Shown here piece by piece: positions 99 to 21,190 of a DNA stretch of 21,358 bases; position 1 is the first letter of the stretch; each line of letters begins with the position of its first letter. This stretch comes from Candidatus Bipolaricaulia bacterium (GTDB lineage: Bacteria; Bipolaricaulota; Bipolaricaulia; JBHIAT01), in NCBI GenBank assembly GCA_046758705.1, contig JBHIAT010000050.1:1-21358 (forward strand), read 5' to 3'. Made by a program: the position numbers and the translations under genes. The notes below the pieces were generated by a model. It was not told the DNA's origin. It saw nothing but the letters and a program-made list of their open reading frames with translations, and searched no databases.

Positions 99-136
99 AA
101 CTTTTCAACTTGTGAACTTTTCAACTTTTAACTGTT
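99..136. repeat. Short tandem repeat, ~8-nt period (AACTTTTC-like x5)
   Basis: AACTTTTC AACTTGTG AACTTTTC AACTTTT AACTGTT, directly 3' of the kinase stop codon on the minus strand. Confidence 0.75.
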
Positions 137-3100: not shown

Positions 3101-3717
3101 TGGAGCTCCCACAGGGAGTTCTCCCGCTCTTCAAACAGCCGGGCGTTCTTGATGGCCAGGGTGATCTCATCCCGGATCGCCTCGATCGTCCTCAGGTCTT
3201 CCTTGTCGAAGGCGTTCTCCACAGTCTTGCTGTTGAGGGCAAAGTACCCTATCACCTTCCCGTCGATGTACACTGGGATAAAGATCGACGATTTCGGATG
3301 TCCCACCTCTTTGAGCTTCTCCACTATCTCAGGATCATAATACCGCTTGTTCAACGCTTCGATCTCCTCGCACCCGACGATCGTCGGCTCGTTGATCGAT
3401 TCCTGGATGAGGATCGTGCGATCGGCGGGGAGTTTGATCCGCTTTAACAACTCCAGGTCCCAGCCGCGGGCCGCCTGGAACTCGAAGACGTTCTCTCGTT
3501 CGTTCAACATCAGGAACGAGCCGCTGTCGGCGGTGGGAATCATGTTGATCGCTTGCTCCAAGATAACGTTCATCAACTCCTCTAAATCGGAGGTCTCATT
3601 CATCACCCTCATGAACCGATTGACACTCCTGATCCGATTCTCGGCCTGCTTGCGCTGGGTTTCTGCTATTTCTAATTCATTGATAAGTTTCCCTTTTGCC
3701 TTATCTTTATCTTTCAT
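136..3717 (-). CDS. Cytoplasmic multi-GAF histidine kinase fused to a NarL/LuxR-type response regulator (GAF x4, HisKA_3, HATPase_c, REC, LuxR HTH)
   Basis: 1193-aa ORF. GAF-end motifs (AIGHQIGVAIENARLY, EITLAIKNARL); HisKA_3 H-box QEEERRLVAYDIHDELIQ; N-box EALINAKKHA; G-boxes QDWGTGF and LGLIAMQER; receiver LIADDHPIVR / ILMDVRMPEMDG / GYLLK; LuxR HTH LTDREREVLRLVVEGMSNSEIAKVLDISVSTAKTHV. No obvious transmembrane segment. Confidence 0.93.
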   Translation of the reverse strand: MKDKDKAKGKLINELEIAETQRKQAENRIRSVNRFMRVMNETSDLEELMNVILEQAINMIPTADSGSFLMLNERENVFEFQAARGWDLELLKRIKLPADRTILIQESINEPTIVGCEEIEALNKRYYDPEIVEKLKEVGHPKSSIFIPVYIDGKVIGYFALNSKTVENAFDKEDLRTIEAIRDEITLAIKNARLFEERENSLWELQQRNLELSTLYAITSTVSGSLDLNVILDEALSRAMELTKTKAGVIRLMDESNQELVLTTYQGLSPESIKAFAKERFKLDEGGAGRVAQSGKPLVIQNLTEDPRLVHRELFKKEGLQSGVIIPLKSKDRFIGVLFLGDRTFRLFAEKEVQLLMAIGHQIGVAIENARLYEKVKLTAEELEQQVRQIRRTNRFMRVMNETSNLGELMNVILEQAIDIVPNADSGSVLMLNEAEGILEFQATCGWDLELLKRIEIPTDRSILILKSINKSTIIEGEEFKALHKRHYDPEIMEQFKELEYPKSLIIVPVHIDGKIVGCFIIHSLAVENAFDEEDLNLIEEVRDEITLAIKNARLSKERKRSLQKLQQRTLELSALYEIASMASGSLNLDAILDQALGAAIELMEVECGEIFLIDESNQELVPAVYQGIPSELVEMLTIVKLKLGEGIPGRVAQSGEPIVIQNLAEDPRVAHREIIKKAGLQSEVVIPLKSKQRVTGALLLGTRTTRLFTEEEVQLLMAIGHQIGMAIENIQLYDDLRMKEKQLRSFVNRLIQVQEEERRLVAYDIHDELIQHIISANMYLKTGLKKLRSRARTTEEIQTVLEKGLNQLNQSITEARRIIAALRPSTLDHLGLIPAIQDHLRELQQETGWEVVFEENLEKVRLDPTVEVVVYRIIQEALINAKKHAETDRVRVAIERRSAHLNVEVQDWGTGFDPKELHQADREEDKPLGLIAMQERAKLVGGRFTVESALDQGTTVRAEIPLRRRRITADQDSRPNREITVLIADDHPIVRDGLRLMLDVEGIRIIGEAANGKQTVVKANRLAPDIILMDVRMPEMDGLDALKEIKAENPEIAVIMLTTYDNPSYLLQAVASGAAGYLLKEVPCEELVDAIRRVHDGESLINRSMLKELVEELTQESSKTTPVGTELTQDLLTDREREVLRLVVEGMSNSEIAKVLDISVSTAKTHVEHIIMKLHVSDRVQTAVWAVRHGLA
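1520..3620 (-). repeat. Intragenic tandem duplication of a GAF-GAF unit, offset 1083 bp (361 codons)
   Basis: Three anchors give the same offset: CACCCTCATGAACCG at 2521 and 3604, GATGGCCAGGGTGATCTCATCCCGGA at 2068 and 3151, GATGGCCATCAACA at 1558 and 2641. Boundaries approximate. Confidence 0.9.
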
Positions 3718-4188: not shown

Positions 4189-5958
4189 ATGGCGGACCGT
4201 AAGCGCCAGAAGCCGCACGATGAGCCCCGACGCCGGCCGGGAGGAGAACCGGAGCGGGAGAACGAACCGGGGGCTTCGAAGGATCCTGATCCCGACCAGG
4301 AGGCGAGGGAGACCCAGATTCGTGCCCTGGCTATCCTGGATGAGATCCTGATGCAAACTCCAGCGGATGATCCCCAGCTCGGGCTGTTGGAGCTGCTACG
4401 CCATCAGCTCGAGGTCGACGAGCTCCAGCTCCAGGAGGCCCAGGATCTGATCGCCGAGTTCGAGGAGATCTACGAGAAGCTTACCTCCCCCGCCAACCGT
4501 ATCGGCACCTACCTGGACTCCCCGGACGAAGAGATCGCTTACATCGCTCTCGGCGACAGCGAGTATTACGTCAACGTCGATCCTAATATCGATCTCGAGT
4601 CGTTAAAGGTCGGGACCCGGGTGAGGTTAAACGAGGCGTTCGTGATCATTGGGGACCTGGGTTACCATCCTCAGGGCCCGATCGTGAAGGTTGCGGAGGT
4701 GTTAGATGATGGGCGACTGCGGATCTCGACGGAGGGGCCTGCGCAGTCGGGGCGTCTGGTGATGCGTTCCTCGGCTTTGGAAAGGGAGACGTTGAAACCC
4801 GGCGATGAGGTCCGAATGGAGCCCTCGCTGAAGGTGGCGATCGAGTCGTTCCAGAGACGGGAGGCCCGCGACTACTATCTAGAGAAGATCCCGGAGATCC
4901 CGTGGAGCCGGATCGGCGGACAAAAGGAAGCGATTCAGCTCATCCGCGATACGATCGAGCGTCCGCTCCTCTATCCGGAGTTGTATGAGCGCTTCGGCAA
5001 GCGGACGTTGAAGGGCATCCTGCTCTACGGTCCGCCGGGCTGCGGCAAGACGTTGATCGCCAAGGCGACCGCGTACAACCTCACCCAGGCCTACAGCGAG
5101 CGGATCGGCAAGGACGTGCGCGAGTACTTCATGTTCATCAACGGTCCACAGCTGCTCAACATGTGGCTGGGCGAGACCGAGCGCATGGTCCGGGAGATTT
5201 TCTCTGCCGCACGCGAGCGGGCGGCGGAGGGATACCTCGTATTCGTCTTTATCGATGAAGCCGATTCGCTGTTGCGCGCGCGCAGTTCGGGCCGCTACCT
5301 CAACATTGCCAACACCGTCGTACCTCAATTTTCCGGTGAGATGGACGGGTTGGTGGGTCTGGAGAATGTGGTGGTGATGCTCACCTCGAACCGTCCCGAC
5401 TACATCGATCCTGCGGTCCTGCGCCCGGAGCGTATCAGCCGCAAAGTCAAGATCGGCCGTCCCGACCATGACTCATCGGCCGAGATCTTTTCCATCTATC
5501 TCCATGAGGACGTGCCGCTCGATCCGGCCTGGGTGGAACGATGCGGCGGTGATTCCGAGCGAGCGCGCCGCGAGCTGATCGAGCGCGCGACCGACTATCT
5601 GTTCCGTCGCACCCGGGAGACCGCTTTCCTCAAGGTGAGTCTGCGCAGCGGTCGCCGGGAGACTCTCTACTGGAGAGATCTGGTCAGCGGTGCGTTGATC
5701 GAATCGGCGGTCGAACGAGCCAAAGAGTACGCGATCCGACGATGGATCGATGAGCAATCCGAGGGAGGCGTCAACTGGGAGAATCTAAACGAGGCGATCC
5801 AACGCGAGTACCAGGAGAACGAGATCTTCCCTAAGGCCGACATGGTTGAGGACTGGTTGAAGCTGCTCGATCACGAACCAGAGAACGTTGTCGAGGTACA
5901 CCCTGCCCAAGAGCGGGACGGGAAGGAACGTCGCCGGGACGTCGATTCGGTCGTCTGA
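4189..5958 (+). CDS. arc: Proteasome-associated AAA+ ATPase (ARC/Mpa family)
   Basis: N-terminal coiled coil followed by OB-like interdomains (KVGTRVRLNE, LKPGDEV); Walker A GPPGCGKT; pore loop LNMWLGETER; Walker B VFIDEAD; NTVVPQFSGEMDG; TSNRPDYIDPAVLRP; first gene of a dop/prc/pafA operon. Confidence 0.95.
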   Translation: MADRKRQKPHDEPRRRPGGEPERENEPGASKDPDPDQEARETQIRALAILDEILMQTPADDPQLGLLELLRHQLEVDELQLQEAQDLIAEFEEIYEKLTSPANRIGTYLDSPDEEIAYIALGDSEYYVNVDPNIDLESLKVGTRVRLNEAFVIIGDLGYHPQGPIVKVAEVLDDGRLRISTEGPAQSGRLVMRSSALERETLKPGDEVRMEPSLKVAIESFQRREARDYYLEKIPEIPWSRIGGQKEAIQLIRDTIERPLLYPELYERFGKRTLKGILLYGPPGCGKTLIAKATAYNLTQAYSERIGKDVREYFMFINGPQLLNMWLGETERMVREIFSAARERAAEGYLVFVFIDEADSLLRARSSGRYLNIANTVVPQFSGEMDGLVGLENVVVMLTSNRPDYIDPAVLRPERISRKVKIGRPDHDSSAEIFSIYLHEDVPLDPAWVERCGGDSERARRELIERATDYLFRRTRETAFLKVSLRSGRRETLYWRDLVSGALIESAVERAKEYAIRRWIDEQSEGGVNWENLNEAIQREYQENEIFPKADMVEDWLKLLDHEPENVVEVHPAQERDGKERRRDVDSVV

Positions 5959-5982
5959 ACCGGCGGACGTTAAGGAGGATCG

Positions 5983-7539
5983 ATGGAGCGGCTGATGGGC
6001 ACCGAGATCGAATATGGCTTGTATATCGACGGGGTTGATTTGGTCGATCTCGTCGACGAGGCCCGGGCGGTGGTAGCCAGTTGGCCCGGGCAATTCGCTG
6101 CACCCTGGGATTACAGCCGGGAGAACCCATTGCGCGATCTGCGGGGAGGGTACGCGTCGCGGCTGGCCACCGACCCACGGGATGACCGCTACGAAAGACC
6201 GTCTTCAAGACGGCTTACACCCCATGAGAACCATGTCGACCTCGTCCTGCCCAACGGAGCCCGGTTGTACCAGGATCACGGTCATCCCGAGTACAGCACG
6301 CCCGAATGCCGCTCCCTCTTTGACCTGGTCGCTCATGAGCGAGCGGGTGAGCGGATCGTCCGGGAATGTGCTCGCCGGTACGCCCGGAGAACCCATCACC
6401 AGGTCACCCTTTATAAGAACAACACCGACTTCCACGGGATGAGCTACGGGGCGCACGAGAACTATCTGGTGCGCCGCGATGTCCCGTTCGAACAACTGTT
6501 GAGCGGTATACTGCCGTTTTTGGTGACCCGGCAGATCTTCGCCGGGGCCGGCAAGGTAGGGGTTGAGGGAGAGAAAAACGAGGCCGGAACGATCCCGTAC
6601 CAGCTGTCGCAACGGGCGGACTTCTTCACCGAGCTTGCCGGTGTCGACACGCTCTACAAACGCCCGTTGATCAACACCCGCGATGAGCCTCATGCCGATC
6701 CCGCCCGTTTCCGGCGGTTTCACGTAATTGCTGGAGACGCCAACATGAGTGAGTATGCGCTCGCCCTGAAGCTGGGCACGACGGCCCTGGTCCTGTCTCT
6801 GATCGAGTCGGGTTGGGGTCCGAATCTGGAGTTGAAAGCGCCAGTTCAAGCAGTCCGCCATATCTCGCGGGATCCGACGTGGCGCTGGGAGGTCGAGCTG
6901 ACGGGTGGGCGGACGATGCCCGCGGTGGAGATTCAGCGTGTTTACCTGGAGGCGGCTCAGGAGCGCTATGCGGGTCAGGACGGGGAGGATGAGGAGGCGG
7001 ACTGGGTGTTGCGGGAATGGGAGGCGGTTCTGGACGGCCTCGAGACCGATCCTGAACGGCTTGCTGATCGTCTCGACTGGGTCGCGAAGCAGGGATTGCT
7101 GGCGTCGTTCATCGAGGCCGAGGGCCTGGACTGGAGCGATGAACGGTTGCTCAGCCTCGATCTCGCCTACCATGATCTCGAACCGGAGCGCGGACTCTAC
7201 AGTGCTCTTGAGGCAGACGGAGCGGTGCGACGGGTCACGACCGATGAGCAGATCCGGAAAGCGATTGAGTGTCCGCCGGCCGATACCCGGGCGTACCTGC
7301 GCGGCCTGTGTGTCAGCCAACTGGGGACATCCCTACGATCGTTGACCTGGAGTCGGATCGTCCTGGATAATCACGATACCGAGGTGGTGTTGGATTTAAG
7401 CGATTGGGTAGACGACAGGGTGGCGACGCGTAACCGGGCGTTCGCCGATGCGGAGGCGGAAGTCACCCCCGTCGGGATCAAACAGGCGATCGAGCAGCCT
7501 ATAGATGGTGATTCAAACTCTGAGGATGAGGAGGTGTAA
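5983..7539 (+). CDS. dop: Dop-family deamidase/depupylase
   Basis: RLMGTEIEYG, NGARLYQDHGHPEYSTPEC (Dop-type DHxHPEYS), YKNNTDFHGMSYGAHENY, LSQRADF, RPLINTRDEPHAD, RFHVIAGDANMSE, LDWVAK, DLAYHD, PPADTRAY; RBS AAGGAGG; directly upstream of the tag gene. Confidence 0.93.
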   Translation: MERLMGTEIEYGLYIDGVDLVDLVDEARAVVASWPGQFAAPWDYSRENPLRDLRGGYASRLATDPRDDRYERPSSRRLTPHENHVDLVLPNGARLYQDHGHPEYSTPECRSLFDLVAHERAGERIVRECARRYARRTHHQVTLYKNNTDFHGMSYGAHENYLVRRDVPFEQLLSGILPFLVTRQIFAGAGKVGVEGEKNEAGTIPYQLSQRADFFTELAGVDTLYKRPLINTRDEPHADPARFRRFHVIAGDANMSEYALALKLGTTALVLSLIESGWGPNLELKAPVQAVRHISRDPTWRWEVELTGGRTMPAVEIQRVYLEAAQERYAGQDGEDEEADWVLREWEAVLDGLETDPERLADRLDWVAKQGLLASFIEAEGLDWSDERLLSLDLAYHDLEPERGLYSALEADGAVRRVTTDEQIRKAIECPPADTRAYLRGLCVSQLGTSLRSLTWSRIVLDNHDTEVVLDLSDWVDDRVATRNRAFADAEAEVTPVGIKQAIEQPIDGDSNSEDEEV

Positions 7540-7542
7540 CCG

Positions 7543-7722
7543 ATGCCCGAACGTGTGAAGCGAAGAACGGTCGAGGAGCCTTGGACGAAGCCCAAGCAGG
7601 GCGACGATGACGGACCGCAGACCCCCGATATCGATCGGCCCGACAGCCGTCGATTGCTCGAGCGGATGAAGCGGGTCGATCCACGTCAGGCGCAGCGCTA
7701 TCGCCAGCGTAGCGGGGAGTAA
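7543..7722 (+). CDS. ubact: Ubiquitin-like protein modifier, UBact type (59 aa; absent from the ORF track)
   Basis: Manual translation: MPERVKRRTVEEPWTKPKQGDDDGPQTPDIDRPDSRRLLERMKRVDPRQAQRYRQRSGE*. RBS GAGGAGGTG at 7528-7536; sits between dop and prcB like pup; low-complexity charged N-terminus; C-terminal R-S-G-E matches the UBact R[ST]G[EQ] signature. Confidence 0.92.
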   Translation: MPERVKRRTVEEPWTKPKQGDDDGPQTPDIDRPDSRRLLERMKRVDPRQAQRYRQRSGE

Positions 7723-7760
7723 TCGGAGCCGAGAGGCGAAGGGCAGAGTGAGGTGAGACC

Positions 7761-8588
7761 ATGGGATCGAGGTTCAGATTGGATGGTGGCGCTGTTAGTG
7801 AGTCTGAGTTCGAGACGACCGGCGACTTCCTCGGGTTACTGCGTCGTAGTGGCATCCCGTTTCCCGAGGTGGGGAACGAAGGGGTCGAAAGCGGTGGGGG
7901 TCCTGCTCAGGGGCTCGGCGCTGCACATGGCACGACCGTGATCGCCGTCAAGTTCCGGGACGGCGTCCTGAACGTGGCCGACCGGCGGGCGACCTCGAGC
8001 AACTACATCCTGTACGATGAGGCGGAGAAGATCCTGTCCCTGGATGATCAGATGCTGATTGCCATCGCCGGCTCCTATGCTCAGGCGATCGAGGCGGTTC
8101 GATTCTTGAGACACAACTTCAAATATTATGCCCGCAGTCAGCTCCAGGAGATGAGCCTGGAAGGCAAGCTCGGCGAGGTCTCCCGGGTACTGGGGCGCAG
8201 CCTGCCCGGCGCACTGCAAGGGATCGGTGGCTTCCTGCCGGTGGTGAGCGCCCATGACCGACAGAACGGAGGCGGCCGAATCTTCTTCTACGATATGCTC
8301 GGCGCCCGGTTTGAGAGCCGGGAGTTCGGTGCAGCGGGGTCCGGAGCGGAGCGGATTCGGGGTGTGTTTGACTATATCGTCCGATCCAAAGGCCCGTTCC
8401 ATACGCTGTCGCTCGATGAGGTGTTGCGGGAGACGCTGTTGCTGTTGGACATCGCCGCCGGCCTGGATGCGGCGACCGCCGGTCTCGGGGGCGTACCGCC
8501 TCTGGCGAAGACGGTCACCGCCGACGGAATCGCCGATATCCCTGAGGATCATATTCGCGCCCTCCAGAAAGAATTGGTGCAGCGGTAA
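7761..8588 (+). CDS. prcB: 20S proteasome beta subunit with 57-aa propeptide
   Basis: AHG|TTVIAV autocleavage site (Thr1 codon at 7932); Asp17 (ADRRAT) and Lys33 (AEKI) in canonical register; AGSG motif; RBS GAGGTG at 7750-7755. Confidence 0.95.
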   Translation: MGSRFRLDGGAVSESEFETTGDFLGLLRRSGIPFPEVGNEGVESGGGPAQGLGAAHGTTVIAVKFRDGVLNVADRRATSSNYILYDEAEKILSLDDQMLIAIAGSYAQAIEAVRFLRHNFKYYARSQLQEMSLEGKLGEVSRVLGRSLPGALQGIGGFLPVVSAHDRQNGGGRIFFYDMLGARFESREFGAAGSGAERIRGVFDYIVRSKGPFHTLSLDEVLRETLLLLDIAAGLDAATAGLGGVPPLAKTVTADGIADIPEDHIRALQKELVQR

Positions 8589-8597
8589 GGATATAAG

Positions 8598-9446
8598 ATG
8601 GCCTACAGCTACAGCCCGTACGATTGGCAACAGACGCTCCATCAGAAGGCGGAGTACGTCGAGGATCGGCTGAAGCGCGGCAGCCCCGTTGTCGCGCTGA
8701 GTTGCGTGTTGGGGATCTTGTTACTCACGATCCGGGGGAGTCAGCGAAAGATCTTTGAGATCTACGACCGGCTGGTGTTCACCGGACTCGGCAATCCTGC
8801 TGATCTGGAGGTGGTACGCCATCAGACGGTCGACTTCACCCACCTGGAGGGCTACCAACGCAGCCCGGAGGATGTCTCGATCCAGCGGGTGGTCGGCTTC
8901 TCCGTCAGCCCCGTCCTGAAGCGCTTCTTCAGCGATCCTCTCAGAATGCCGCTCGTGCTGAGGGGGCTATTCACCCAGGTCGGGGATCTCCCTGAGGAGG
9001 ATCTGTTCCTGACGGTCAACTACGATGGGGAGTTCAACACGCGAACGCACCACGCCGTCGTGGCCGGGACCGGGGCGGCCGAGGTGCAAATGGATCGATT
9101 GCTTAAGGGGCTCAGAACCGGAGTCGACCGACCCCTGTCTCTGGAGGCCGCCATCGAGGCCGCTTTGGAGGTGTGGACGGTAGGGTGGTGGCATGCCCGC
9201 CATGGAGAGGAGGGCGTGGGATCAGATGAGGATAATGGTGAGCCCGAGGGTGAGGGAGCGAACGGTCTTCCCACCGAGGAGGAACGCCATGAGTTCCTGG
9301 TCGACGCGCTCGCCGACGGTGTCGTTGAAGCCGTCCTGCTGGAGCGGGAGCCTCAACGAGAGCGCCGGTACCGGAGCCTTGAAGACGAGGAAGTGAGGCG
9401 GTTCCTGCCGCCCTCCCAAGGGCCGGCCGAGGGCGGGGGAGGGTAA
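8598..9446 (+). CDS. prcA: 20S proteasome alpha subunit
   Basis: YSPYDWQQTLHQKAEYVEDRLKRGSPVV N-terminal helix, KIFEIYDRL, VNYDG, EAVLLER; follows prcB. Confidence 0.92.
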   Translation: MAYSYSPYDWQQTLHQKAEYVEDRLKRGSPVVALSCVLGILLLTIRGSQRKIFEIYDRLVFTGLGNPADLEVVRHQTVDFTHLEGYQRSPEDVSIQRVVGFSVSPVLKRFFSDPLRMPLVLRGLFTQVGDLPEEDLFLTVNYDGEFNTRTHHAVVAGTGAAEVQMDRLLKGLRTGVDRPLSLEAAIEAALEVWTVGWWHARHGEEGVGSDEDNGEPEGEGANGLPTEEERHEFLVDALADGVVEAVLLEREPQRERRYRSLEDEEVRRFLPPSQGPAEGGGG

Positions 9447-9452
9447 ACGACC

Positions 9453-10940
9453 GTGCCGGACCGCATCGTCGGGTTGGAGACAGAGTTTGGATGTCTGGTA
9501 CGCGATCCCAGCCTGGGTTCCCCGGAGGAGGTCGTCCGATGCGTGAAAGACACGGCATTTTGTTCCGGATCCGAATCGTGGGGATTGCTCGATCGCCATA
9601 GCCGCGACCCGTATTTCGAACCCGCCGAGTCCGGCGGGTTCCTCATCAACGGGGGGCGGTTGTACGTGGATTCGGTGGGGGATCATGAGGAGTACGCCAC
9701 TCCGGAATGCCAAGTGCTCATCGATCTGATCACGTACGACCGGGCCGGGCGACGTCTGCTCGGACGGCTGCTGCATGACCTGGGTTGGAGTAAAGGCGTC
9801 AGTTTCCATAGCAACAGCATCGATCACTTCGGTGGCCACACCTTCGGTTGTCACGAGAACTACTCCCTCGACCCGGATGCCCTGGCTACCCGAGATTCCC
9901 TCGCTCCGCTGATCCCGTTCTTGGTGACCCGACAGATCTTCGCCGGGTCAGGTCGGGTCGGCGGTCACCGGCTCACCCGAAACCTCGGGGTTCGGAAGAG
10001 CCATGAGCTGGCGAGGAACCCGATCGACCATATATTTATCGACCATCTCTACGGTGTGGAACCGGACCCAACGGTGGAGTTCCAACTGTCCCAGCGAGCC
10101 GATCATATCTTGTACATCGTCTCGGAGCGTGTCCGCTTCCGCCGGGCGCTGATCAACCCCAAGTGGTGGGACAGCTCTAACGACCTCGATCGTGCCCCCC
10201 GGCTGCACGTCCTGTTCGGTGAATCGAATATGTCGGAGTACGCGGCATACTTGAAGGTGGGAACCACCGCCCTGGTGCTCGATCTGCTGGAGGCGAACCA
10301 GGGGCCGAAACTCAGGTTGATCGATCCGATTCAGTCATTGAGGCAGATCTCTCGCGATCCCACCTGGCGCTGGATCGTGCGCACGCAAAAGGGGAAGACC
10401 ATATCTGCGGTGGACCTGCAACGCCTCTACTTGGAGGCAGCCATACGATGCTTCTCGGGTCGAGATGAGGAAACGGACTGGGTACTTAGAGAGTGGGGGG
10501 TCGTCCTCGACGGGCTGGGGCGCGATCCGACCTCGATGAGCGATCGACTCGATTGGGTCGCCAAACGCAACCTGTTGGAAACGTACATAGATGCCGAACG
10601 GATTGATTGGGGGGACGAGGTGCTGCATAGCCTCGACCTGGAATACCATAATATCGATCCCAAGAACGGCCTGTACTATGCTCTGGAGAGCATGGAACAG
10701 GTTCGTCGCCTGACGAACGACGAGGCGATCGAACGGGCGCTCTGTGAGCCGCCCCCGGACACCCGAGCCTACGGCCGCGCTCGCGTCATCAAGGAGTTGC
10801 TAAAACGAGGAGCACGGCATTACCGCATCGAGTGGGACAGCGTCTCGGCCGGCCAACGAGACCGGCGAACCCTAATCCTGGACAACCCATTCTCCCCCTA
10901 CCGACGTCAGGTGGAGCGATTCCTCCGGCGAATATGGTAG
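9453..10940 (+). CDS. pafA: PafA-family Pup/UBact-protein ligase
   Basis: GTG start; RIVGLETEFG, NGGRLYVDSVGDHEEYATPEC, GCHENY, LSQRADHI, RLHVLFGESNMSE, LKVGTT, LDWVAK, LDLEYHNI, PPPDTRA; last gene of the operon and paralogous to dop. Confidence 0.9.
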   Translation: MPDRIVGLETEFGCLVRDPSLGSPEEVVRCVKDTAFCSGSESWGLLDRHSRDPYFEPAESGGFLINGGRLYVDSVGDHEEYATPECQVLIDLITYDRAGRRLLGRLLHDLGWSKGVSFHSNSIDHFGGHTFGCHENYSLDPDALATRDSLAPLIPFLVTRQIFAGSGRVGGHRLTRNLGVRKSHELARNPIDHIFIDHLYGVEPDPTVEFQLSQRADHILYIVSERVRFRRALINPKWWDSSNDLDRAPRLHVLFGESNMSEYAAYLKVGTTALVLDLLEANQGPKLRLIDPIQSLRQISRDPTWRWIVRTQKGKTISAVDLQRLYLEAAIRCFSGRDEETDWVLREWGVVLDGLGRDPTSMSDRLDWVAKRNLLETYIDAERIDWGDEVLHSLDLEYHNIDPKNGLYYALESMEQVRRLTNDEAIERALCEPPPDTRAYGRARVIKELLKRGARHYRIEWDSVSAGQRDRRTLILDNPFSPYRRQVERFLRRIW

Positions 10941-10948
10941 CGTATTAT

Positions 10949-13900
10949 CTAGAAGTTGGTGATCACACCGAGTGAGGCGAGGAAGGTGTTGTAGGAATCC
11001 TCGGCGTTCAGATAGTCGACCCCGGTGATGTAGCTGATCGAGAAATTCAGAGCCCACATCTCTCCCAGTTGGTAGTCGAGCCCGAGCGTGACCTCGGCGC
11101 TCAGTTCGTCGGTCGCCTCTCCCTGTTCCTCTCCGACCTGGTAGTTCCCGGTGGTGGTGAATTTGGAGGAGATCCCCGGGGCGACGGCATAGCTCAGCGT
11201 GTTGGAGAGCGAATAGGTGGTCATTACTTGGTCCAGTTCGGTCCGCTGTGTCCAGTTCTGCGACAGGGATAGATTATCGGTTATTCCCGGGCCGAGCTGC
11301 CAGGTCAACCCGGCGGTGGTGGTGGTCGTAGCCGTCTCTTGCAGTCCGAAAGTCGGATGCTCCAACAGCCCGTTCGTCGCCCGAAACTCGAGGCGTGGGG
11401 TGATCCCCTTAAGCCCGGTGTAGCTGGTGCTGAGGGAAAGTTCATCCTGGGTGTTGCGCTTGATTCCGCTCCCCACGAGTTGTTGATCGACCTGACTCTG
11501 AGTGTAGGAGAGCCGGGTGTTCAGTTTCCTATAGACCCCGGTCAGGCCGCCGGTTCCGGAGATCGTCGTCGTCGGGGTCCCCGGAGCGAGGGGCTCGGTC
11601 TGATCCCACCTCAGGTTGACGGAAGGGGTGAGTCGCAACCCCCCTAGTTGGAAGCTTTTGAAATTGACCGTGGTGGACGTATTCTCCGTCCTTCCCGGCT
11701 CGCTGAATTCGCCCGTGAGGAACTGGTCGGGTTCCAGATCATCTATCTCCCAGCGGTTGTTCTGGCTGTAAATGGTGTTCACAGTGAATGGGCCGAAGTC
11801 GTTCGACCAGCGGGCCGACCAGTTAAGGGTCTGATTGCCATCGATCACCTGGGTCACCTTGATCGGCAGGGAGTAGTTCAGATTCAGAAACAGGTTCTTG
11901 ACGATCTCATAGCTGACGTTGCCGATCAGGTTATGGGAGACGAACGAGTTCAGCGCCTGGACCAGATCGTCGTAGTCCACCTGCTGGTAGCCGATCCCCA
12001 AGGTCAGCCGTCCGCTCAGGAACCGTTCGCTCACCGAGAGCTGATAGGTGCGCTGCCGTTTGTCGGTGAATGTTGGTATCTGAGTAGCCGACCGTTGGTC
12101 GGTGTAATCGAGTCCGATCTCTGGACCGAGCTCCCATTGCAGACCGAGGTCGTCGGTGACCGTCCGGCTCGACGACTGCTCCGAGTCGACGTGGGAGGCG
12201 GAGATGGAGAGTTTGGGGGTGATGTCGTAATCAGCGGCCAGGCTCAACCGTTGTTGGTCAAGACGGTTGAGCCAACCGATTGCGGTGAACGACGGCTCGA
12301 TCCGCTCGAAGCTCGCCCGTACCTCTCCCCGATCGAACCGGTAATCGAGGTCGACCCGTCCGGCCCAACCCTGGTCGATGATCGATGCGTCAGGATCCTG
12401 ATAGCGGAACTGATCCTCACCGGCGATTCCGGTATCCTCATCCGGATACTCTTTGTCGAGCAAACCGGTTTCAACTCTCCAGATGGATAGCTCGTAGGCG
12501 CTGTCCGCTTCGGAACCGATCCACAGGGTGGTCCCGTCGGCCGCCAGCGCGGTGATCTTCGGGTCGGCAGCCCCGCTGATCAGGTCGAGGCGAACCGAGT
12601 TGCGATAGAGCCCATCGTCCCTCCCGACCCAAAGCCTCCCGTTTTCATAAGCGACGGAATAGGCAGGACGCCCATCGGTCGGCGAGTTCCATCCAGTGGC
12701 GTCCACAAACCCCACGCCACTATCGGTCGCCACGTAGAGATTGCCATCATCCCCTATGGCCATATCGTGAACCGGTTCATCAGAAACGGTCTCGAACTTG
12801 GTCTGCGGCGGATCCAGCGACATCAGTCCAGCATCCGTGCCCAAGTACATCTTATTGTCATACTCCTCGATCATGAGGATGACGTCGCTGAGCATCTCCG
12901 GGTATTCCTCTGTGTCATAGATCGTCCACTCGTTTGTTTGTCCCTCATCCTTTAGGATGTCGAGCGATATCTTCCCAAACCCGGCATCGGTTCCCACCCA
13001 GAGTTCTCCTTGATCATCGTCGACAAAGACAGTGTAGATGGTGCTGCTCGGCAGACCATCGCTCGTGTGGAAACGTTTCCAGTTTTCCACGACCGGGAAC
13101 GGATCGAGTTCTCTCTCCAATGTGGTGAGCCCCGACTCGGTGGCAAAGAACCAGCGATCTGGATCGAAATCGATATCGTAGACCGTCCGCCCTGACAGGC
13201 CGTCTGAGACATCGTAGCTCGTCCAGCTTGGGGTCTGATAGACGGTCAGTCCATTCCGGTGGGCAAAGAAGACCGTTTGGCCCGGATCGGGATCAGCAAA
13301 AATATCATGAATCTGGTTGAATTGGTTCGCTTTGCTGTTGTTATCGAACGGGAATTCGTCGTGGTTGTACGCCAGTTCGAGGTTCAGATCGAAGGCATCC
13401 CCGGTGTATCGGGCGGTGAAGCCCGTCACCGTATGGGTATTCGGCATGGTCGTGGCGCGCTCCGGATCGACGGTCGGTGTGGGACTGTCCTTCAACTGGA
13501 GCAGGTCAACGTTAAAAGAGAGGCGGTCGGTGGGTTGATACCCGAACGATACTCCGTAGAAGTTGCTCTTGTACTCGGTGAAGCCGCCGAGCCCGCCCCG
13601 GAACGTCTCGTAGTCGATCCGCAGCACGTCGTCGATCGTCACTTCACGGAACAGGATCACGATACCGAACTCGTAGTCGATGGTGTAGTCGATGTCCCGC
13701 TCGAGCAGCTCATCGTTCAGATAGACCTTCTCGCTCCCCTGGACGATCGACAGCCCCAGCACATAAACGTTCTCTGAAATCGTGTAGTTGTAGCTTGTCC
13801 TGATTGCATATAAGCCGCCCGAAAGCAGCTCGAGGATGCCCTCCTCGTCAAAGATGAACGGATCCAGATCGGGACGTACCTGCTCTATGGGTTGATAACT

Positions 13901-15043
13901 GTCGCTGGATGTCAATTTTACCTCAATCGTCACGGTATCCAGTTCGATCTCCTGATGGCCCAGGTCATAGAATCTCCTCCGGCTGTAGCTGTTTAATGGG
14001 GTGGCCACCAGCGCCTCGGTGTTCTCCGGCGGGCTGCCCGCTTCAATCTGGACGTGCTCATCTCGCAACTCCTCAAGAAACAAAAGTTCGGGATCGGTTC
14101 CCTCATTCCAGGGGTACTGTTTCTGCGCGTCACCTTCCAACTCGTTCTTCTCGTTATATTCCCGGATGAAATCCTGGATTTGATCTCTGAGCAGGTCTAA
14201 CGCTTCCCGCTTCAGGAGCAGGTAGTGCTCCTCCCCTAGGGTGGTGATGGCCACATACACCCCTGAACTGATCTCCTGAGTGTCTCCTTCGGCGAGCACC
14301 CCATCATCCGTGTCACTCTCCCGATAGAGGTAGTCCAGTCCGTAGTTCATTAACAGGTCCTTCAGGCTCCGGCTGGCCCCTCCAGCCGTTTGATATCTCA
14401 ACCGCACCTCCATAAAATCCGAGTCGAACCTGTCATCCAGTGGACCGTAGAACTCAAGGCCCTCAATGTCGGCGACGAGCTGATCGTTCTCGTCTCGTCT
14501 TGGACTGTAGGAAGCATCCGGTTCAAATGCGGTGATATCACTGCTTGAGTTTCCAGAGAATTCCTTGGAGGCCGAGGTCCCCTGGATCCGGGAGATGACC
14601 CCGGTGGCCGAGAACTCGCTGAGCGCTCCGGTCAACTCCGCTCCCTTCAGGCTCTTGTTGTAGACCGTGTAGCGGTTGTTCGGCCGGAAGGTGAAGTCAC
14701 CGAACCGTCCTTTCCAGTTGTCGGTATCCAGTGTAATCGTGATCAGCTGGAGGTTCTCATCGCTGAAATCATCGAGGTGGGCCGAGATTGACAGGCCCGT
14801 GGCGATCTCGCCGGAGATATCGACGCCGAGGGACTGGTCGAGGAGGAGCTGGTTCCGCGCATAGTCCTGTCCTGGAATCCCCTCCTGGTCCCCCCAAGCA
14901 TACTTGAGGGTCCAGGTCTTGGTTCCCAAGATCTTCAGGTTGGACGACCCATCATCTCCCCCGTCCTGAGCGAAGGTGTTTATAGAGATCAACACCAACA
15001 ACGTTAAGGACAGGGCGAAGCGGGTGATCGGCATCGGTTTCAT
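10949..15043 (-). CDS. Large secreted, probable outer-membrane beta-barrel protein with SprA-like N-terminal motifs and an internal beta-propeller
   Basis: 1364 aa. Signal peptide (…LTLLVLISINTFA|QD); long amphipathic beta-strand C-terminal region ending in Phe (ASLGVITNF); propeller repeats SDGLSGRTVYDI, SDGLPSSTIYTV…LWVGTDAG, MYLGTDAGL, LYVATDSGV, LWVGRDDGL. The ORF is well supported; the function call is by-eye resemblance. Confidence 0.7.
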   Translation of the reverse strand: MKPMPITRFALSLTLLVLISINTFAQDGGDDGSSNLKILGTKTWTLKYAWGDQEGIPGQDYARNQLLLDQSLGVDISGEIATGLSISAHLDDFSDENLQLITITLDTDNWKGRFGDFTFRPNNRYTVYNKSLKGAELTGALSEFSATGVISRIQGTSASKEFSGNSSSDITAFEPDASYSPRRDENDQLVADIEGLEFYGPLDDRFDSDFMEVRLRYQTAGGASRSLKDLLMNYGLDYLYRESDTDDGVLAEGDTQEISSGVYVAITTLGEEHYLLLKREALDLLRDQIQDFIREYNEKNELEGDAQKQYPWNEGTDPELLFLEELRDEHVQIEAGSPPENTEALVATPLNSYSRRRFYDLGHQEIELDTVTIEVKLTSSDSYQPIEQVRPDLDPFIFDEEGILELLSGGLYAIRTSYNYTISENVYVLGLSIVQGSEKVYLNDELLERDIDYTIDYEFGIVILFREVTIDDVLRIDYETFRGGLGGFTEYKSNFYGVSFGYQPTDRLSFNVDLLQLKDSPTPTVDPERATTMPNTHTVTGFTARYTGDAFDLNLELAYNHDEFPFDNNSKANQFNQIHDIFADPDPGQTVFFAHRNGLTVYQTPSWTSYDVSDGLSGRTVYDIDFDPDRWFFATESGLTTLERELDPFPVVENWKRFHTSDGLPSSTIYTVFVDDDQGELWVGTDAGFGKISLDILKDEGQTNEWTIYDTEEYPEMLSDVILMIEEYDNKMYLGTDAGLMSLDPPQTKFETVSDEPVHDMAIGDDGNLYVATDSGVGFVDATGWNSPTDGRPAYSVAYENGRLWVGRDDGLYRNSVRLDLISGAADPKITALAADGTTLWIGSEADSAYELSIWRVETGLLDKEYPDEDTGIAGEDQFRYQDPDASIIDQGWAGRVDLDYRFDRGEVRASFERIEPSFTAIGWLNRLDQQRLSLAADYDITPKLSISASHVDSEQSSSRTVTDDLGLQWELGPEIGLDYTDQRSATQIPTFTDKRQRTYQLSVSERFLSGRLTLGIGYQQVDYDDLVQALNSFVSHNLIGNVSYEIVKNLFLNLNYSLPIKVTQVIDGNQTLNWSARWSNDFGPFTVNTIYSQNNRWEIDDLEPDQFLTGEFSEPGRTENTSTTVNFKSFQLGGLRLTPSVNLRWDQTEPLAPGTPTTTISGTGGLTGVYRKLNTRLSYTQSQVDQQLVGSGIKRNTQDELSLSTSYTGLKGITPRLEFRATNGLLEHPTFGLQETATTTTTAGLTWQLGPGITDNLSLSQNWTQRTELDQVMTTYSLSNTLSYAVAPGISSKFTTTGNYQVGEEQGEATDELSAEVTLGLDYQLGEMWALNFSISYITGVDYLNAEDSYNTFLASLGVITNF

Positions 15044-15147: not shown

Positions 15148-16623
15148 TCAGCGGAGCGGCATGAACCGGGTCCGGTCTCCCCGCATGATGGTGAAGACCG
15201 GATTCTCATCCTCACTTATCCCGCCGACGATCTCGTTCCATTCCTCGACGGAGTTGACCGGGCGGCGGTCGACTTCAAGGATCACATCTCCAGGCTGGAG
15301 CCCGGCCCAAAACGCCTTGCTCCCTGACTCGACATCGATGATGGCCATTCCCTCATCCGTTGCAAGATCCATCCGCTCAGCGAGATCCCTTGAGTTCTCG
15401 GTAACGGTGACCCCGAATTTGGGAACCGGTGCAACGCCGCGGGGGGCGAGTGCCGAGGTCTCCGGCCGCTCACCCAGGGTGACGTTTACCTCGATCTGCT
15501 GACCATCCCGGATCACCTCTAAGGTGACCTGCTCGCCGACCTGTCGAAACATGATCTCATCTTGCAGGCCACTCGGGCCTTGGATCAGGTTGCCGTCTAC
15601 TTTGAGGATCACATCGCCGCGCTCGAGTTTCCCGTCGGAGGGCGAACCTCCCACCACGTCGCTGACCAGAGTGCCCCGCTCCGGTTCGACATTGAACTCC
15701 TCGGCCAGCTGTGGGGTGACCACCTGGATGAAGACGCCGAGCCACGCCCGTCGCACCCGGCCCGTTTCGATCAGTTGGGGTAGGATCTGTTTGGCACTGT
15801 TGATCGAGATGGCGAAGTTGAGCCCCTCCAGGGGGATGCCCCGATCCCCGGCCCGTTGGATGGCGGCATTGATGCCGATGACCTCCGCGTGGGCATTGAC
15901 GAGAGGGCCGCCGCTGTTACCCGGGTTGATGGCGGCGTCGGTCTGGATCATATCACGATACAGGCCGTTGCCGTTGGGCTTCGGGATGTCCCGGTGTAGT
16001 GCGCTGACGACCCCGACGGTGACGGTGCTGAACAATCCTTCGGGGTTGCCGATGGCGATCGCCCATTCCCCGATGATTGCCCCATCTGAATCCCCGAGCG
16101 ACAGCGCCGTGGGCAGATTGTCGAGGCTGGCGCCGAACAGTCCCTGCCTCAACTCCAGGACCGCCAGGTCTACGTCGGCATCGCTGCCGATCACCTCGGC
16201 ATCGTATCGCTTGCCGTTGGGGAAGATCACCGTGATCTTATCGGCGTCGGCTACCACATGCTGGTTGGTCAGCACGTATTTGCGTCCACCGAACTGGATC
16301 ACGAATCCCGAGCCCAGTGCCGAGATCTGACGCTCCCGCTCATCGAACGGGGCCGGGTCCCCAAAGAAGAACCGGAAGTATCGCTCGAAGGTCTCATCCT
16401 GGAAGAACCGACTGAACGGATCTTGAACCGCCACCTGACGGGTAACCTCGATCCGTGCCACCGAGGAGCCGGTCTCTTGGATCACATCGGTGATCGCATT
16501 CTGGCGCGATATGGTGATCTCGTCTTGGGCGCTGGCCGGGGTGTCGGCCGGGCCCCACAGGGAAAGACCGATCCCGATGAACAAAAGCACCAGGATCGGC
16601 AAGAAATAGCGCTTCATTTGCAT
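15148..16623 (-). CDS. htrA: HtrA/DegP (Do-family) serine protease with two PDZ domains, 491 aa
   Basis: Start reassigned to ATG 16623 (RBS AGGAGGT just upstream; signal peptide MQMKRYFLPILVLLFIGIGL…ASA|QD). LGSGF, TNQHVV (His), DLAVL (Asp), IQTDAAINPGNSGGPL (Ser); PDZ motifs WLGVF and AGLQPGDVILEVD. Confidence 0.95.
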   Translation of the reverse strand: MQMKRYFLPILVLLFIGIGLSLWGPADTPASAQDEITISRQNAITDVIQETGSSVARIEVTRQVAVQDPFSRFFQDETFERYFRFFFGDPAPFDERERQISALGSGFVIQFGGRKYVLTNQHVVADADKITVIFPNGKRYDAEVIGSDADVDLAVLELRQGLFGASLDNLPTALSLGDSDGAIIGEWAIAIGNPEGLFSTVTVGVVSALHRDIPKPNGNGLYRDMIQTDAAINPGNSGGPLVNAHAEVIGINAAIQRAGDRGIPLEGLNFAISINSAKQILPQLIETGRVRRAWLGVFIQVVTPQLAEEFNVEPERGTLVSDVVGGSPSDGKLERGDVILKVDGNLIQGPSGLQDEIMFRQVGEQVTLEVIRDGQQIEVNVTLGERPETSALAPRGVAPVPKFGVTVTENSRDLAERMDLATDEGMAIIDVESGSKAFWAGLQPGDVILEVDRRPVNSVEEWNEIVGGISEDENPVFTIMRGDRTRFMPLR

Positions 16624-19866: not shown

Positions 19867-20571
19867 ATGCATCCTGATAGCCGTCAGATAATCTATATGG
19901 GCATTAACTTCGTTATGTCTCCAATGCCTACTATCGATATGCAGAGCAACCTGAACTTTCAACAATCCCTTGTTAAGCAAGGAATTGACTTCACCAAGGC
20001 TGAACTCAAGGAACGAGAGATTGTCGTGGTTCGTGAGGCACTAGCACGTCTGGAAATAAAGGTGGCAGCAGTTAGCCCTCCATCAATTGGTCAGCTTCTG
20101 ATTGTGGCTCCGCGACGTGACTTGACCTTGTTTGCCAAAGAAGCACAAGCTATTGTTGAAGCATTTGATTCGACTTGGCCAGCGAAGAACAGACAAGTAA
20201 TCTCCAGCGACGCTACTCTTCGTGATCTCTATGAAACTTCTGCTGAACACGCCTTCCAGGAGCTATGGGAAATGCATCTGGGCCAATCGCGGGCAGCACT
20301 CTCAGCGCTAGGACGGCCCGTTCTCGGTGGTGGCCTCAGATTCGTCATGCCTCCACAGCCGGATGACTCTGAGCCAGTCCAAATAGAGGTGAAAATAGAA
20401 TCTTTCTTGAGAGATACGAGAAAGATCTATGTGGAAACCCAATTTAAGTGGCCTCAGCCGATGCCTCCAGGGACACCGCTGGACCCAGAGAATCGGCTGA
20501 ATCAGGTTAACGACTACGTCAAAAGTGAAGTCATTTCATTTATAGTGGGAGGTTCCCATGACCGCAGTTGA
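19867..20571 (+). CDS. Hypothetical alpha/beta protein, 234 aa, first gene of a toxin-antitoxin-like operon
   Basis: GGGAGA RBS upstream; overlaps the next ORF by 14 nt; more A/T-ending codons than upstream genes; no motif I can firmly assign. Confidence 0.75.
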   Translation: MHPDSRQIIYMGINFVMSPMPTIDMQSNLNFQQSLVKQGIDFTKAELKEREIVVVREALARLEIKVAAVSPPSIGQLLIVAPRRDLTLFAKEAQAIVEAFDSTWPAKNRQVISSDATLRDLYETSAEHAFQELWEMHLGQSRAALSALGRPVLGGGLRFVMPPQPDDSEPVQIEVKIESFLRDTRKIYVETQFKWPQPMPPGTPLDPENRLNQVNDYVKSEVISFIVGGSHDRS

Positions 20572-20836
20572 CAGTCGAACGCCAACGGTCGAACACGAGG
20601 CTTTCGTATATGTTACCTCCGAGCCAAAAGACAGTGAGTGGGGGCAACCAGCCGCCAGTTACTACGAGTTCACAACGGTCGGCACCACGCTGCGCGGCCA
20701 ACTAATTGCGGAGGTCTACTTGGCATCATCATCTTCGGATATTCCCCCCATTGATTTGCACCTTGCCGCAGAATTGGAGGCCTGGGACGCCGCGAGTGAT
20801 GAGGCCCTGGCTAACTTTGAGGCAACGCTGGACTGA
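20558..20836 (+). CDS. Putative antitoxin, 92 aa, acidic
   Basis: RBS GGGAGG at 20547-20552; ends 3 nt before the MazF-like gene; acidic C-terminal helix AAELEAWDAASDEALANFE resembles antitoxin tails seen beside PemK/MazF toxins (by-eye recollection). Confidence 0.6.
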   Translation: MTAVDSRTPTVEHEAFVYVTSEPKDSEWGQPAASYYEFTTVGTTLRGQLIAEVYLASSSSDIPPIDLHLAAELEAWDAASDEALANFEATLD

Positions 20837-20839
20837 CAC

Positions 20840-21190
20840 ATGGCACGCGGTGACGTCTTACGCGTTAAGCTTCCACTCCCACCAGGCGGTGCAGGGCGTG
20901 AGCAGGCAGGGCGCAGGCCAGCGATCGCTGTCCAAACCGATGTCACAAGCGCGAACTTGCCAACGCTTATGATAGTCCCTTTAACTGGACAACTTAGTGC
21001 GTTACGTTTCCCTCACACCATTCGAGTCGAGCCATCAAACACAAATGGACTCAACCAGCCATCGGTCCTATTGGTCTTTCAGCTCCGCGCCATTGATCAG
21101 CGGCGAATTATTGAGGTGATCGGCCGTCTTGAGGAAGAGTACCTCGATCAACTGGATGCCGAAATGCGACGGCTGTTGAGCCTCGAATAA
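20840..21190 (+). CDS. PemK/MazF-family endoribonuclease toxin
   Basis: RGDV…GREQAGRRPAIAVQ, IVPLT, NGLNQPS…QLRAIDQRRI…IGRL; 116 aa. Confidence 0.92.
   Translation: MARGDVLRVKLPLPPGGAGREQAGRRPAIAVQTDVTSANLPTLMIVPLTGQLSALRFPHTIRVEPSNTNGLNQPSVLLVFQLRAIDQRRIIEVIGRLEEEYLDQLDAEMRRLLSLE

Follow-up and report, generated by a model that had tools for sequence, protein, structure and literature searches.

The systems closest to the locus described here are the type IX secretion translocons SprA of F. johnsoniae (6H3I, 6H3J, 8GL6, 8GL8) and Sov of P. gingivalis, which share the profile TIGR04189. Cargo loads onto SprA-PorV without energy (Lauber 2024, PMC10994853). Its release in F. johnsoniae requires the GldLM motor together with SprE and SkpA, and cargo stalls when they are missing (PMC10994853); in the structural model, motor-driven extraction is the essential step (PMC10994853). 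Recent reviews confine type IX secretion (T9SS) to the FCB superphylum (PMC12398890) or to a single phylum (PMC13721041). Reduced versions are on record: organisms placed in Bacteroidetes incertae sedis are reported to have Sov and PorV without PorK, L, M or N, while retaining PorU, PorZ and PorQ, and in Sphingobacteriia that lack PorU, cargo has been suggested to remain bound to PorV (Emrizal 2020, PMC7323717). These motor-less sets were reported within Bacteroidetes, and we found no such system outside the FCB group in the literature searched.

The gene considered here occupies 10949..15043 on the minus strand (where all features given with coordinates below also lie) of a window of 21,358 nucleotides, the whole stretch of Bipolaricaulota DNA that was analysed. 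It is an intact reading frame of 1364 codons, present once in its genome, and its product is confirmed as a compact SprA homologue, in keeping with the original prediction of an SprA-like outer-membrane protein much shorter than SprA (1364 against 2403 aa). A profile of the N-terminal half of the family, compared with 177,635 PDB sequences, matched SprA only (E 2.4e-9). The match consists of two collinear blocks, profile positions 9-127 with F. johnsoniae SprA 146-269 and 362-493 with SprA 679-806, so that strands 1-7, the cap motif and strands 8-10 are homologous and in the same order. The two SprA-like segments that had been singled out earlier are both present in the reading frame and align with SprA. 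Residues 412-549 also match TIGR04189 positions 583-716 (E 1.7e-10), with a score of 38.8 bits confined to that stretch, where the curated threshold asks for 200 bits across some 2300 aa; 44 of 49 family N-terminal halves match the same profile. An alignment by hhalign to P. distasonis SprA gave one block (probability 83%, E 9e-6), and the N-terminal-half profile reaches proteins that exceed the TIGR04189 cut-off (P0141, 204 bits; P0157, 243 bits). The likeness is visible only at the family level: a single-sequence search with the 1364-aa protein returned no match among PDB sequences, and the family profile was needed to reach SprA. The Pfam SprA_N profile (PF14349), a comparison with which had been proposed, recognized neither the full protein nor any of the 49 N-terminal halves, compared with 735 bits for true SprA, and across strands 12-36 sequence similarity to SprA is undetectable. 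An atlas search gave a weak SprA lead at 0.81 and otherwise unnamed clusters.

The predicted layout begins with a Sec signal peptide (aa 1-25, 14969..15043) that, read from sequence, has no lipobox Cys, and ends with a C-terminal Phe, which 62 of 74 aligned family members share; both of these features had been noticed earlier, and SprA has them too. Predicted strands 1-7 (aa 36-153, 14585..14938) are placed by the model and by alignment to SprA 146-269. They are followed by an insert of 339 aa (13568..14584), predicted to form a cap domain at the outer face or in the lumen. This insert is the best-conserved region of the family, conservation reaching 80% or more in 51 of its 339 columns, and it carries the motif GSEKVYLN...DYTIDYE, which SprA also has. 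Modelled strands 8-11 (aa 493-563, 13355..13567) include an invariant TMPN loop, and the loop after strand 11, predicted to lie on the outer face, holds a beta-propeller (aa 575-861, 12461..13321). Strands 12-29 (aa 889-1229, 11357..12379) are joined by short loops in the model, and strands 30-36 (aa 1238-1364, 10952..11332), which lie outside it, were assigned by eye. SprA differs in several respects: here a propeller sits in the loop after strand 11, the loops on strands 12-36 are very short, and the long periplasmic N-terminal arm that binds SkpA and SprE is missing, since only about 11 residues separate the signal peptide from strand 1 of the model (aa 36-49). Of the 47 members in which the strand-1 motif was found, 38 have it among their first 60 aa, whereas the SprA alignment begins at SprA residue 146 and SprA strand 1 at residue ~140.

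The fold points the same way. The structure model, truncated to 29 strands, has a mean pLDDT of 87.4, and SprA entries take the first four places in Foldseek (E 2e-20 to 5e-12), with a whole-fold likeness that is modest for this truncated model (TMq 0.38, rmsd 18.8 Å). SprA is also the top fold match for a complete homologue of 1149 aa, whose full-length model has about 30-32 strand elements, low confidence around aa 740-955 and a poorly folded C-terminal half, and does not confirm the strand count. In a second look with VIA, propellers took up the list and SprA did not appear. Adding the seven strands assigned by eye to the 29 modelled ones (pLDDT 87) gives a predicted total of about 36, as in SprA, with closure of the barrel not visible. 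In this assignment each of the 17 internal even-numbered turns has 2-8 aa and both large inserts follow odd strands, which places both inserts on the predicted outer side; a crude score of hydrophobic alternation is uneven, falling close to zero at strands 7, 15 and 27. The protein likely forms an outer-membrane pore of roughly 36 strands, and the large barrel of the original prediction gains support from the model. The barrel of Deinococcus SlpA is among the fold matches as well (E 4e-9, TMq 0.21), far below SprA in score.

The barrel family is present in 40 of 41 genomes of the bipolaricaulotal class, where it is nearly universal and single-copy, and in 11 of 22 genomes of one class of Bacillota. 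Of 80 loci, 67 have a PorV-like gene within 1.5 kb of the barrel gene, 67 a gene for a protein with a T9SS-type tail within 7 kb, and 65 both, as counted with profiles built from those same loci. Tailed genes directly precede 72 of 76 PorV-like genes. In the class, the PorV family NF033709 matches 38 of 41 genomes (3 over the cut-off) and the type A C-terminal domain (CTD) TIGR04183 matches 40 of 41 (38 over the cut-off). The source genome, where a search for PorV and T9SS-CTD proteins had been proposed, has four PorV-like proteins (61-87 bits, all under the NF033709 cut-off of 90) and five tailed proteins (three over the TIGR04183 cut-off), encoded on contigs other than that of the barrel gene and including two tail-then-PorV pairs. 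The barrel had been placed outside the usual T9SS context. This is correct for the host, which lies outside the usual T9SS phyla, but finds no support in gene content, where PorV-like carriers and type A CTD cargo accompany the barrel family. What is directly observed is the homology to SprA, the insertion of a propeller, and the fact that PorV-like genes and genes for tailed cargo co-occur with the barrel gene and are linked to it. From this we consider it probable that the protein is a shortened SprA homologue, a pore of about 36 strands that exports folded, type IX-tagged proteins with PorV-like carriers, the usual proton-driven motor being undetected. The barrel might instead be a structural component of the envelope or a relic, its linkage to PorV and tails being historical and the cargo leaving by another route. 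Its near-universal, single-copy occurrence in the class, the SlpA match and the separation of the barrel gene from PorV-like and tailed genes in the source genome would fit such a role. Against these stand the low score of SlpA relative to SprA, the conservation of the SprA-specific cap motifs above all other parts and the maintenance of the three-gene unit across two phyla, and we regard this possibility as quite improbable.

The propeller sets the protein apart from SprA. Repeats of the type found in hybrid two-component sensors had been predicted at 12470-13310, in agreement with the computed span. Reg_prop (PF07494) matches at 37.2 bits against a cut-off of 20.4, and the nearest propeller fold is the sensor domain BT3049 (3V9F; Z 28.4, rmsd 2.4, 266 aligned residues). 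The fold and its Reg_prop repeats are common to other sensor propellers (BT4663, BT4673) and to the T9SS protein PorZ (5M11), although here a single propeller is embedded in a loop of an outer-membrane barrel. It is the hallmark of the subfamily, being kept in 74 of 75 near members against 1 of 55 distant matches. One reading of these results is a receptor, or a large gated pore, in which the propeller would bind a ligand from outside and which would have nothing to do with protein export. However, hybrid sensor propellers score Z 27-28 and WD40 propellers Z 25-27, only 2-3 Z units apart, so the sensor match leaves function unspecified, and PorZ, whose profile match is weak (E 1.4e-5), shows that a propeller of this type also occurs within T9SS. 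Domain searches and the model revealed no Y_Y_Y domain, transmembrane helix or kinase in the 1364-aa protein, and thus nothing to pass on a signal; nor did searches reveal a TonB or ExbB that could drive uptake (TonB_C was not found in the source genome and was detected in 3 of 14 controls). Together with the tight linkage to PorV-like and cargo genes, this makes a sensor or receptor role, which the original prediction had raised beside that of a translocon, hardly probable. Mid-size SprA-like proteins of other phyla (P0141, P0142, P0157, P0195) have strands 1-7 and the cap motif in common with the present protein and lack the propeller; four have a CBM_11-like domain further along instead. 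This may point to an exchangeable cap slot. In distant relatives the loop after strand 11 was mostly not located, because the profile of strands 12-15 rarely matched.

Export through a SprA-type pore raises the question of energy. The original prediction had proposed a search for GldKLMN. GldK was not found in the source genome (93.9% complete), while related domains were detected in three controls; GldN was not found there either, in a search that had no control. GldL and GldM were each found in 0 of 41 class genomes and Pfam GldM in 0 of 4 Bacillota hosts, searches for which no positive control gave a match: the one Bacteroidota record with sprA that was tried as a control yielded no GldM. 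Similarly, no Plug was found in 41 class genomes and no PorP in the source genome, in both cases without a control that matched. GldL, GldM, GldN, PorP and Plug are fast-diverging families, and this set of searches is to be read as lacking positive controls. MotA/ExbB/TolQ proteins were found in 0 of 41 class genomes with a working control (9 of 14). The PorU sortase (peptidase C25) is not found in the source genome and matches in 3 of 41 genomes of the class, indicating that the search was able to detect it. The locus thus differs from SprA systems in that no GldKLMN, PorU, PorP or Plug was found and the host is outside FCB. Like the reduced systems of Bacteroidetes incertae sedis, it combines a Sov-type barrel with PorV and no motor genes that could be found. 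It differs from them in a barrel of half the length that carries a propeller, in yielding no PorU, and in its hosts, which belong to Bipolaricaulota and Bacillota.

The translocon could still be driven by an energiser that escaped recognition, either a strongly diverged counterpart of the GldLM motor or some unrelated machine, driven by ATP or ions, whose genes lie elsewhere. The uncontrolled Gld searches leave room for this, as do the MotA/ExbB-family genes present in the four Bacillota hosts tested. On the other hand, clustering of the 80 loci brought out no additional conserved membrane gene, the other recurrent neighbours being read, mostly by eye, as housekeeping genes; MotA/ExbB was not found in the 41 class genomes by a search that works; the N-terminal arm tying SprA to SprE and SkpA is missing; and the set of barrel, PorV and tail persists in genomes of only 1.1-1.3 Mb. 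We therefore consider a hidden energiser unlikely, though the least so of the alternatives.

By analogy to SprA, the barrel of the preferred export model would be exported by Sec and inserted by BAM (Omp85 is present in the source genome), and the loop-7 domain and propeller would close its outer end. A PorV-like barrel would dock at a side opening, the cargo tail binding the carrier loops without energy input, and the carrier-cargo pair may then exit sideways into the membrane, again as in SprA. A complex prediction for aa 35-575 with one PorV-like protein, run without alignments and with the PorV-facing strands not known, gave no answer (score 0.00) and speaks neither for nor against such docking. 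Release would be passive, perhaps favoured by the passenger folding or being bound on the outside. This is the weakest step, and it contradicts the sole studied case, since release in F. johnsoniae needs the GldLM motor and SprE/SkpA. The carrier is probably kept as the surface anchor of its cargo and not recycled, given that a PorV-like gene almost always comes after the gene for its own cargo and that the source genome yielded no PorU sortase.

A wider and more tentative proposal is that Bipolaricaulota and some Bacillota have a three-part, energy-independent type IX export system, comprising a propeller-lidded 36-strand pore and a single-use PorV-like anchor for each cargo, in cells without a known proton-driven trans-envelope motor. 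Such a system might represent the ancestral core of T9SS, to which motor, hub and sortase were added later in Bacteroidota. We think this possible but doubtful. Whatever its origin, a near-universal unit of pore, carrier and cargo in Bipolaricaulota, where GldLM and MotA/ExbB were not found, challenges both FCB exclusivity and the necessity of a motor. It also offers a three-gene system for direct testing of motor-free SprA-type export, and at 1364 aa the protein would provide a far more compact version of the giant barrel for export and surface display of folded proteins.

The barrel gene also has close neighbours in the window. The gene for a DegP-type protease, htrA (15148..16620, minus strand), is directly upstream and ends 104 bp from the barrel gene on the same strand; a promoter/terminator scan, which performed at chance level, gave no terminator-like site in the gap, and a UBact-proteasome operon converges to within 8 bp of the barrel stop codon. 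This arrangement could be taken to mean that the barrel is a quality-control port working with HtrA or the proteasome. But htrA and Pup-ligase genes accompany the barrel in 0 of 80 related loci, htrA lies within 10 kb in none of the 37 relatives carrying both genes, and Pup ligases occur in only 10 of 41 class genomes, which makes a quality-control port very improbable. The position right behind htrA, to which attention had been drawn, is thus real in this genome but does not support a meaningful link. Contamination was considered as a source of the contig and rejected: its tetranucleotide profile ranks 25 of 69 among contigs of similar size, and relatives in the class match its HtrA at about 400 bits, the Bacillota hosts at about 200 bits.

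The gene at 10949-15043 (- strand) encodes a compact SprA-like barrel of 1364 aa and is single-copy in the host genome. Its ORF has the signal-peptide-like start and the terminal Phe that were originally described. The protein is a real, propeller-capped SprA homologue and part of a T9SS-like module outside the FCB group. In NCBIfam, TIGR04189 (SprA) matches aa 412-549 (E 1.7e-10) with 38.8 bits, below its cut-off of 200 bits. Among PDB sequences, a family profile of 49 N-halves matches SprA only (E 2.4e-9), with profile positions 9-127 falling on SprA 146-269 and 362-493 on SprA 679-806. TIGR04189 is matched by 44 of the 49 N-halves and SprA_N by none. Profile comparison with full-length Bacteroidota SprA recovers the cap block alone. 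Against 1.84 billion representatives, the N-half profile retrieves 2268 proteins with an E threshold of 0.001 and 106 with one of 1e-30; two of six distant matches scanned pass the SprA cut-off, and the family therefore grades into SprA proper. The window protein is itself negative in the formal membership tests for both SprA and a full T9SS. Still shorter SprA-like proteins without a propeller are also seen (P0162, 845 aa; P0143, 1138 aa), P0162 resembling a near-minimal barrel with tiny loops.

The AlphaFold2 model, based on an alignment of 71 sequences, covers aa 35-1234 (pLDDT 87.4, pTM 0.70) and contains 29 barrel-type strands; seven more, assigned by eye in aa 1238-1364, bring the total to 36. 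With this numbering, even-strand turns are 2-8 aa, and inserts of 339 aa after strand 7 and 325 aa after strand 11 both lie on the side predicted to face outward. Conservation across the family is highest in the loop-7 insert. The top four Foldseek matches are SprA (E 2e-20 to 5e-12), although similarity over the whole fold is modest (TMq 0.31-0.38, rmsd about 19-22 Å). SprA is also the top match of a complete 1149-aa homologue. The homologue model has low confidence over much of its C-half and leaves the 36 strands unconfirmed, so the barrel is only presumed to be closed. The propeller (aa 575-861) resembles hybrid sensor propellers (Z 28.4) and WD40 proteins (Z 25-27), and Reg_prop is over the Pfam cut-off at aa 663-686, in agreement with the original prediction of a sensor-type propeller within the protein. 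The NCBIfam match to PorZ across it is weak. Among near members 800 aa or longer, 74 of 75 have a propeller, versus 1 of 55 distant matches; 4 of 10 distant proteins scanned have a CBM_11-like domain.

A protein search with the window protein gives 28 matches: itself, 23 relatives (26-39% identity, mostly ~1300 aa) and four that match the propeller only. The barrel gene occurs in 40 of the 41 Bipolaricaulia genomes, host included, and in 11 of 22 genomes of one Bacillota class. Most labels among the best 80 of 207 GTDB matches read Bipolaricaulota, Acetothermia, Fraserbacteria or "uncultured Thermotogae"; 15 matches are labelled Bacillota, Firmicutes or Clostridia. Of 29 loci from class relatives, 13 are identical to labelled ones, seven of these bearing Bipolaricaulota-group and six "Thermotogae" labels, which points to a Bipolaricaulota host. 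Bacillota copies outscore all 40 class relatives (up to 872 bits versus 661 bits). A quick unrooted tree built from 67 N-halves places the window protein between Bacillota and other Bipolaricaulota copies but does not give the direction of transfer. With the barrel closer to the Bacillota copies, an ancient transfer of the module is possible; contamination is unlikely for this contig. The barrel is ~41% identical to Bacillota copies (G041, G042, G049, G059, G062) versus at most 36% over full length to 40 sampled class relatives; like P0003 and the Bacillota-labelled P0014, it has an insertion near aa 240-255.

The barrel gene is linked with genes for PorV-like carriers and for tailed proteins, that is, cargo with a type A C-terminal sorting domain (CTD). 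When ORFs at the best 80 of 207 loci are clustered, two neighbour clusters dominate. In one, all seven sampled members match PorV_fam (two over cut-off); in the other, 6 of 10 match the type A sorting domain (three over cut-off), which usually follows S8 protease or PKD domains. By local profiles made from these same 80 loci, which makes the counts partly circular, 67 loci have a PorV-like gene no more than 1.5 kb from the barrel gene, 67 have a tailed gene no more than 7 kb away, and 65 have both. Of 76 PorV-like genes, 72 come directly after a tailed gene. By curated models, 38 of the 41 class genomes have the PorV family and 40 have the CTD. The suggestion that the protein acts outside the usual T9SS context is thus not upheld. 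The host genome has Omp85, four PorV-like and five tailed proteins, the latter two all off the barrel contig; a PorV-like gene immediately follows those for a 3074-aa Ig/FG-GAP and a 513-aa PKD tailed protein. The 3074-aa secreted protein (G000:C48:3864-13088, L112), which carries a C-terminal tag as well as FG-GAP, Ig-like and FlgD-type domains, is likely a giant surface adhesin; its stop codon overlaps the start of the PorV-like ORF. At seven loci (L046, L064, L067, L073, L077, L079, L080), pairs of tailed PKD protein and PorV-like genes alternate on the opposite strand beside the barrel gene, an arrangement that fits a separate carrier for each cargo.

In searches without a positive control, GldM, GldL and Plug were not found in any of the 41 class genomes, nor GldN and PorP in the host; GldK, TonB_C and Peptidase C25 were not found in the host either. 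The last is present in 3 of 41 class genomes (G010:C31, G028:C3, G030:C22; L122-L124). According to Lauber 2024 (PMC10994853), SprA is a 36-strand capped barrel that opens laterally and binds SkpA/SprE through its N-terminal arm; cargo tails load onto PorV loops without energy, and release depends on the motor. Compared with SprA, the window protein keeps pore and cap homology but lacks the N-terminal arm; compared with the F. johnsoniae-type T9SS, its hosts keep carrier and tag but no motor was found. We infer that it works like SprA, and transport through the barrel is highly probable. Cargo would be exported through the pore and released passively, the weakest step, with the PorV-like carrier retained as anchor. 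The main rival holds that a hidden energiser drives release. MotA/ExbB/TolQ were found in none of the 41 class genomes, in a search where 9 of 14 controls rang; four Bacillota hosts have MotA/ExbB genes, and GldM was not found in them. Several papers confine T9SS to Bacteroidetes or FCB (PMC12398890; PMC13721041; PMC7463736; bioRxiv 10.1101/031039). For Bacteroidetes incertae sedis, PMC7323717 describes Sov and PorV in the absence of PorK/L/M/N; lack of the motor genes is therefore not new on its own. No such system was found described in the Bipolaricaulota or Bacillota literature, although subscription papers or supplements may hold one.

In the window, htrA lies upstream of the barrel gene and a convergent arc-dop-UBact-prcB-prcA-pafA operon downstream. 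The position behind htrA is not conserved: htrA and Pup ligase are absent from all of the best 80 of 207 barrel loci, and in 37 relatives with both htrA and the barrel gene, the two never lie within 10 kb of each other. The UBact-proteasome operon (4189-10940, + strand) is complete, with ATPase, Dop-like, UBact (7543-7722, + strand; NF033388, 80.5 bits), proteasome beta and alpha, and PafA-like genes. Ten of the 41 class genomes have Pup ligases; in G027 these are encoded ~6 kb away from the barrel gene. Among the 41, LpxC is found only in the host (G000:C7:7324-8109, L125), where skp-, fabZ-, lpxD- and lpxA-like ORFs, recognized by eye, follow the omp85 gene (G000:C11 about 22900-29300); the host may therefore make lipid A, unlike its class relatives. 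A 1193-aa hybrid regulator (136-3717, - strand) combines four GAF domains, histidine kinase, receiver and LuxR helix-turn-helix on a single chain. At 19867-21190 (+ strand), a 234-aa ORF without family is accompanied by a 92-aa ORF and a MazF/PemK-like gene, the latter two probably a toxin-antitoxin pair.
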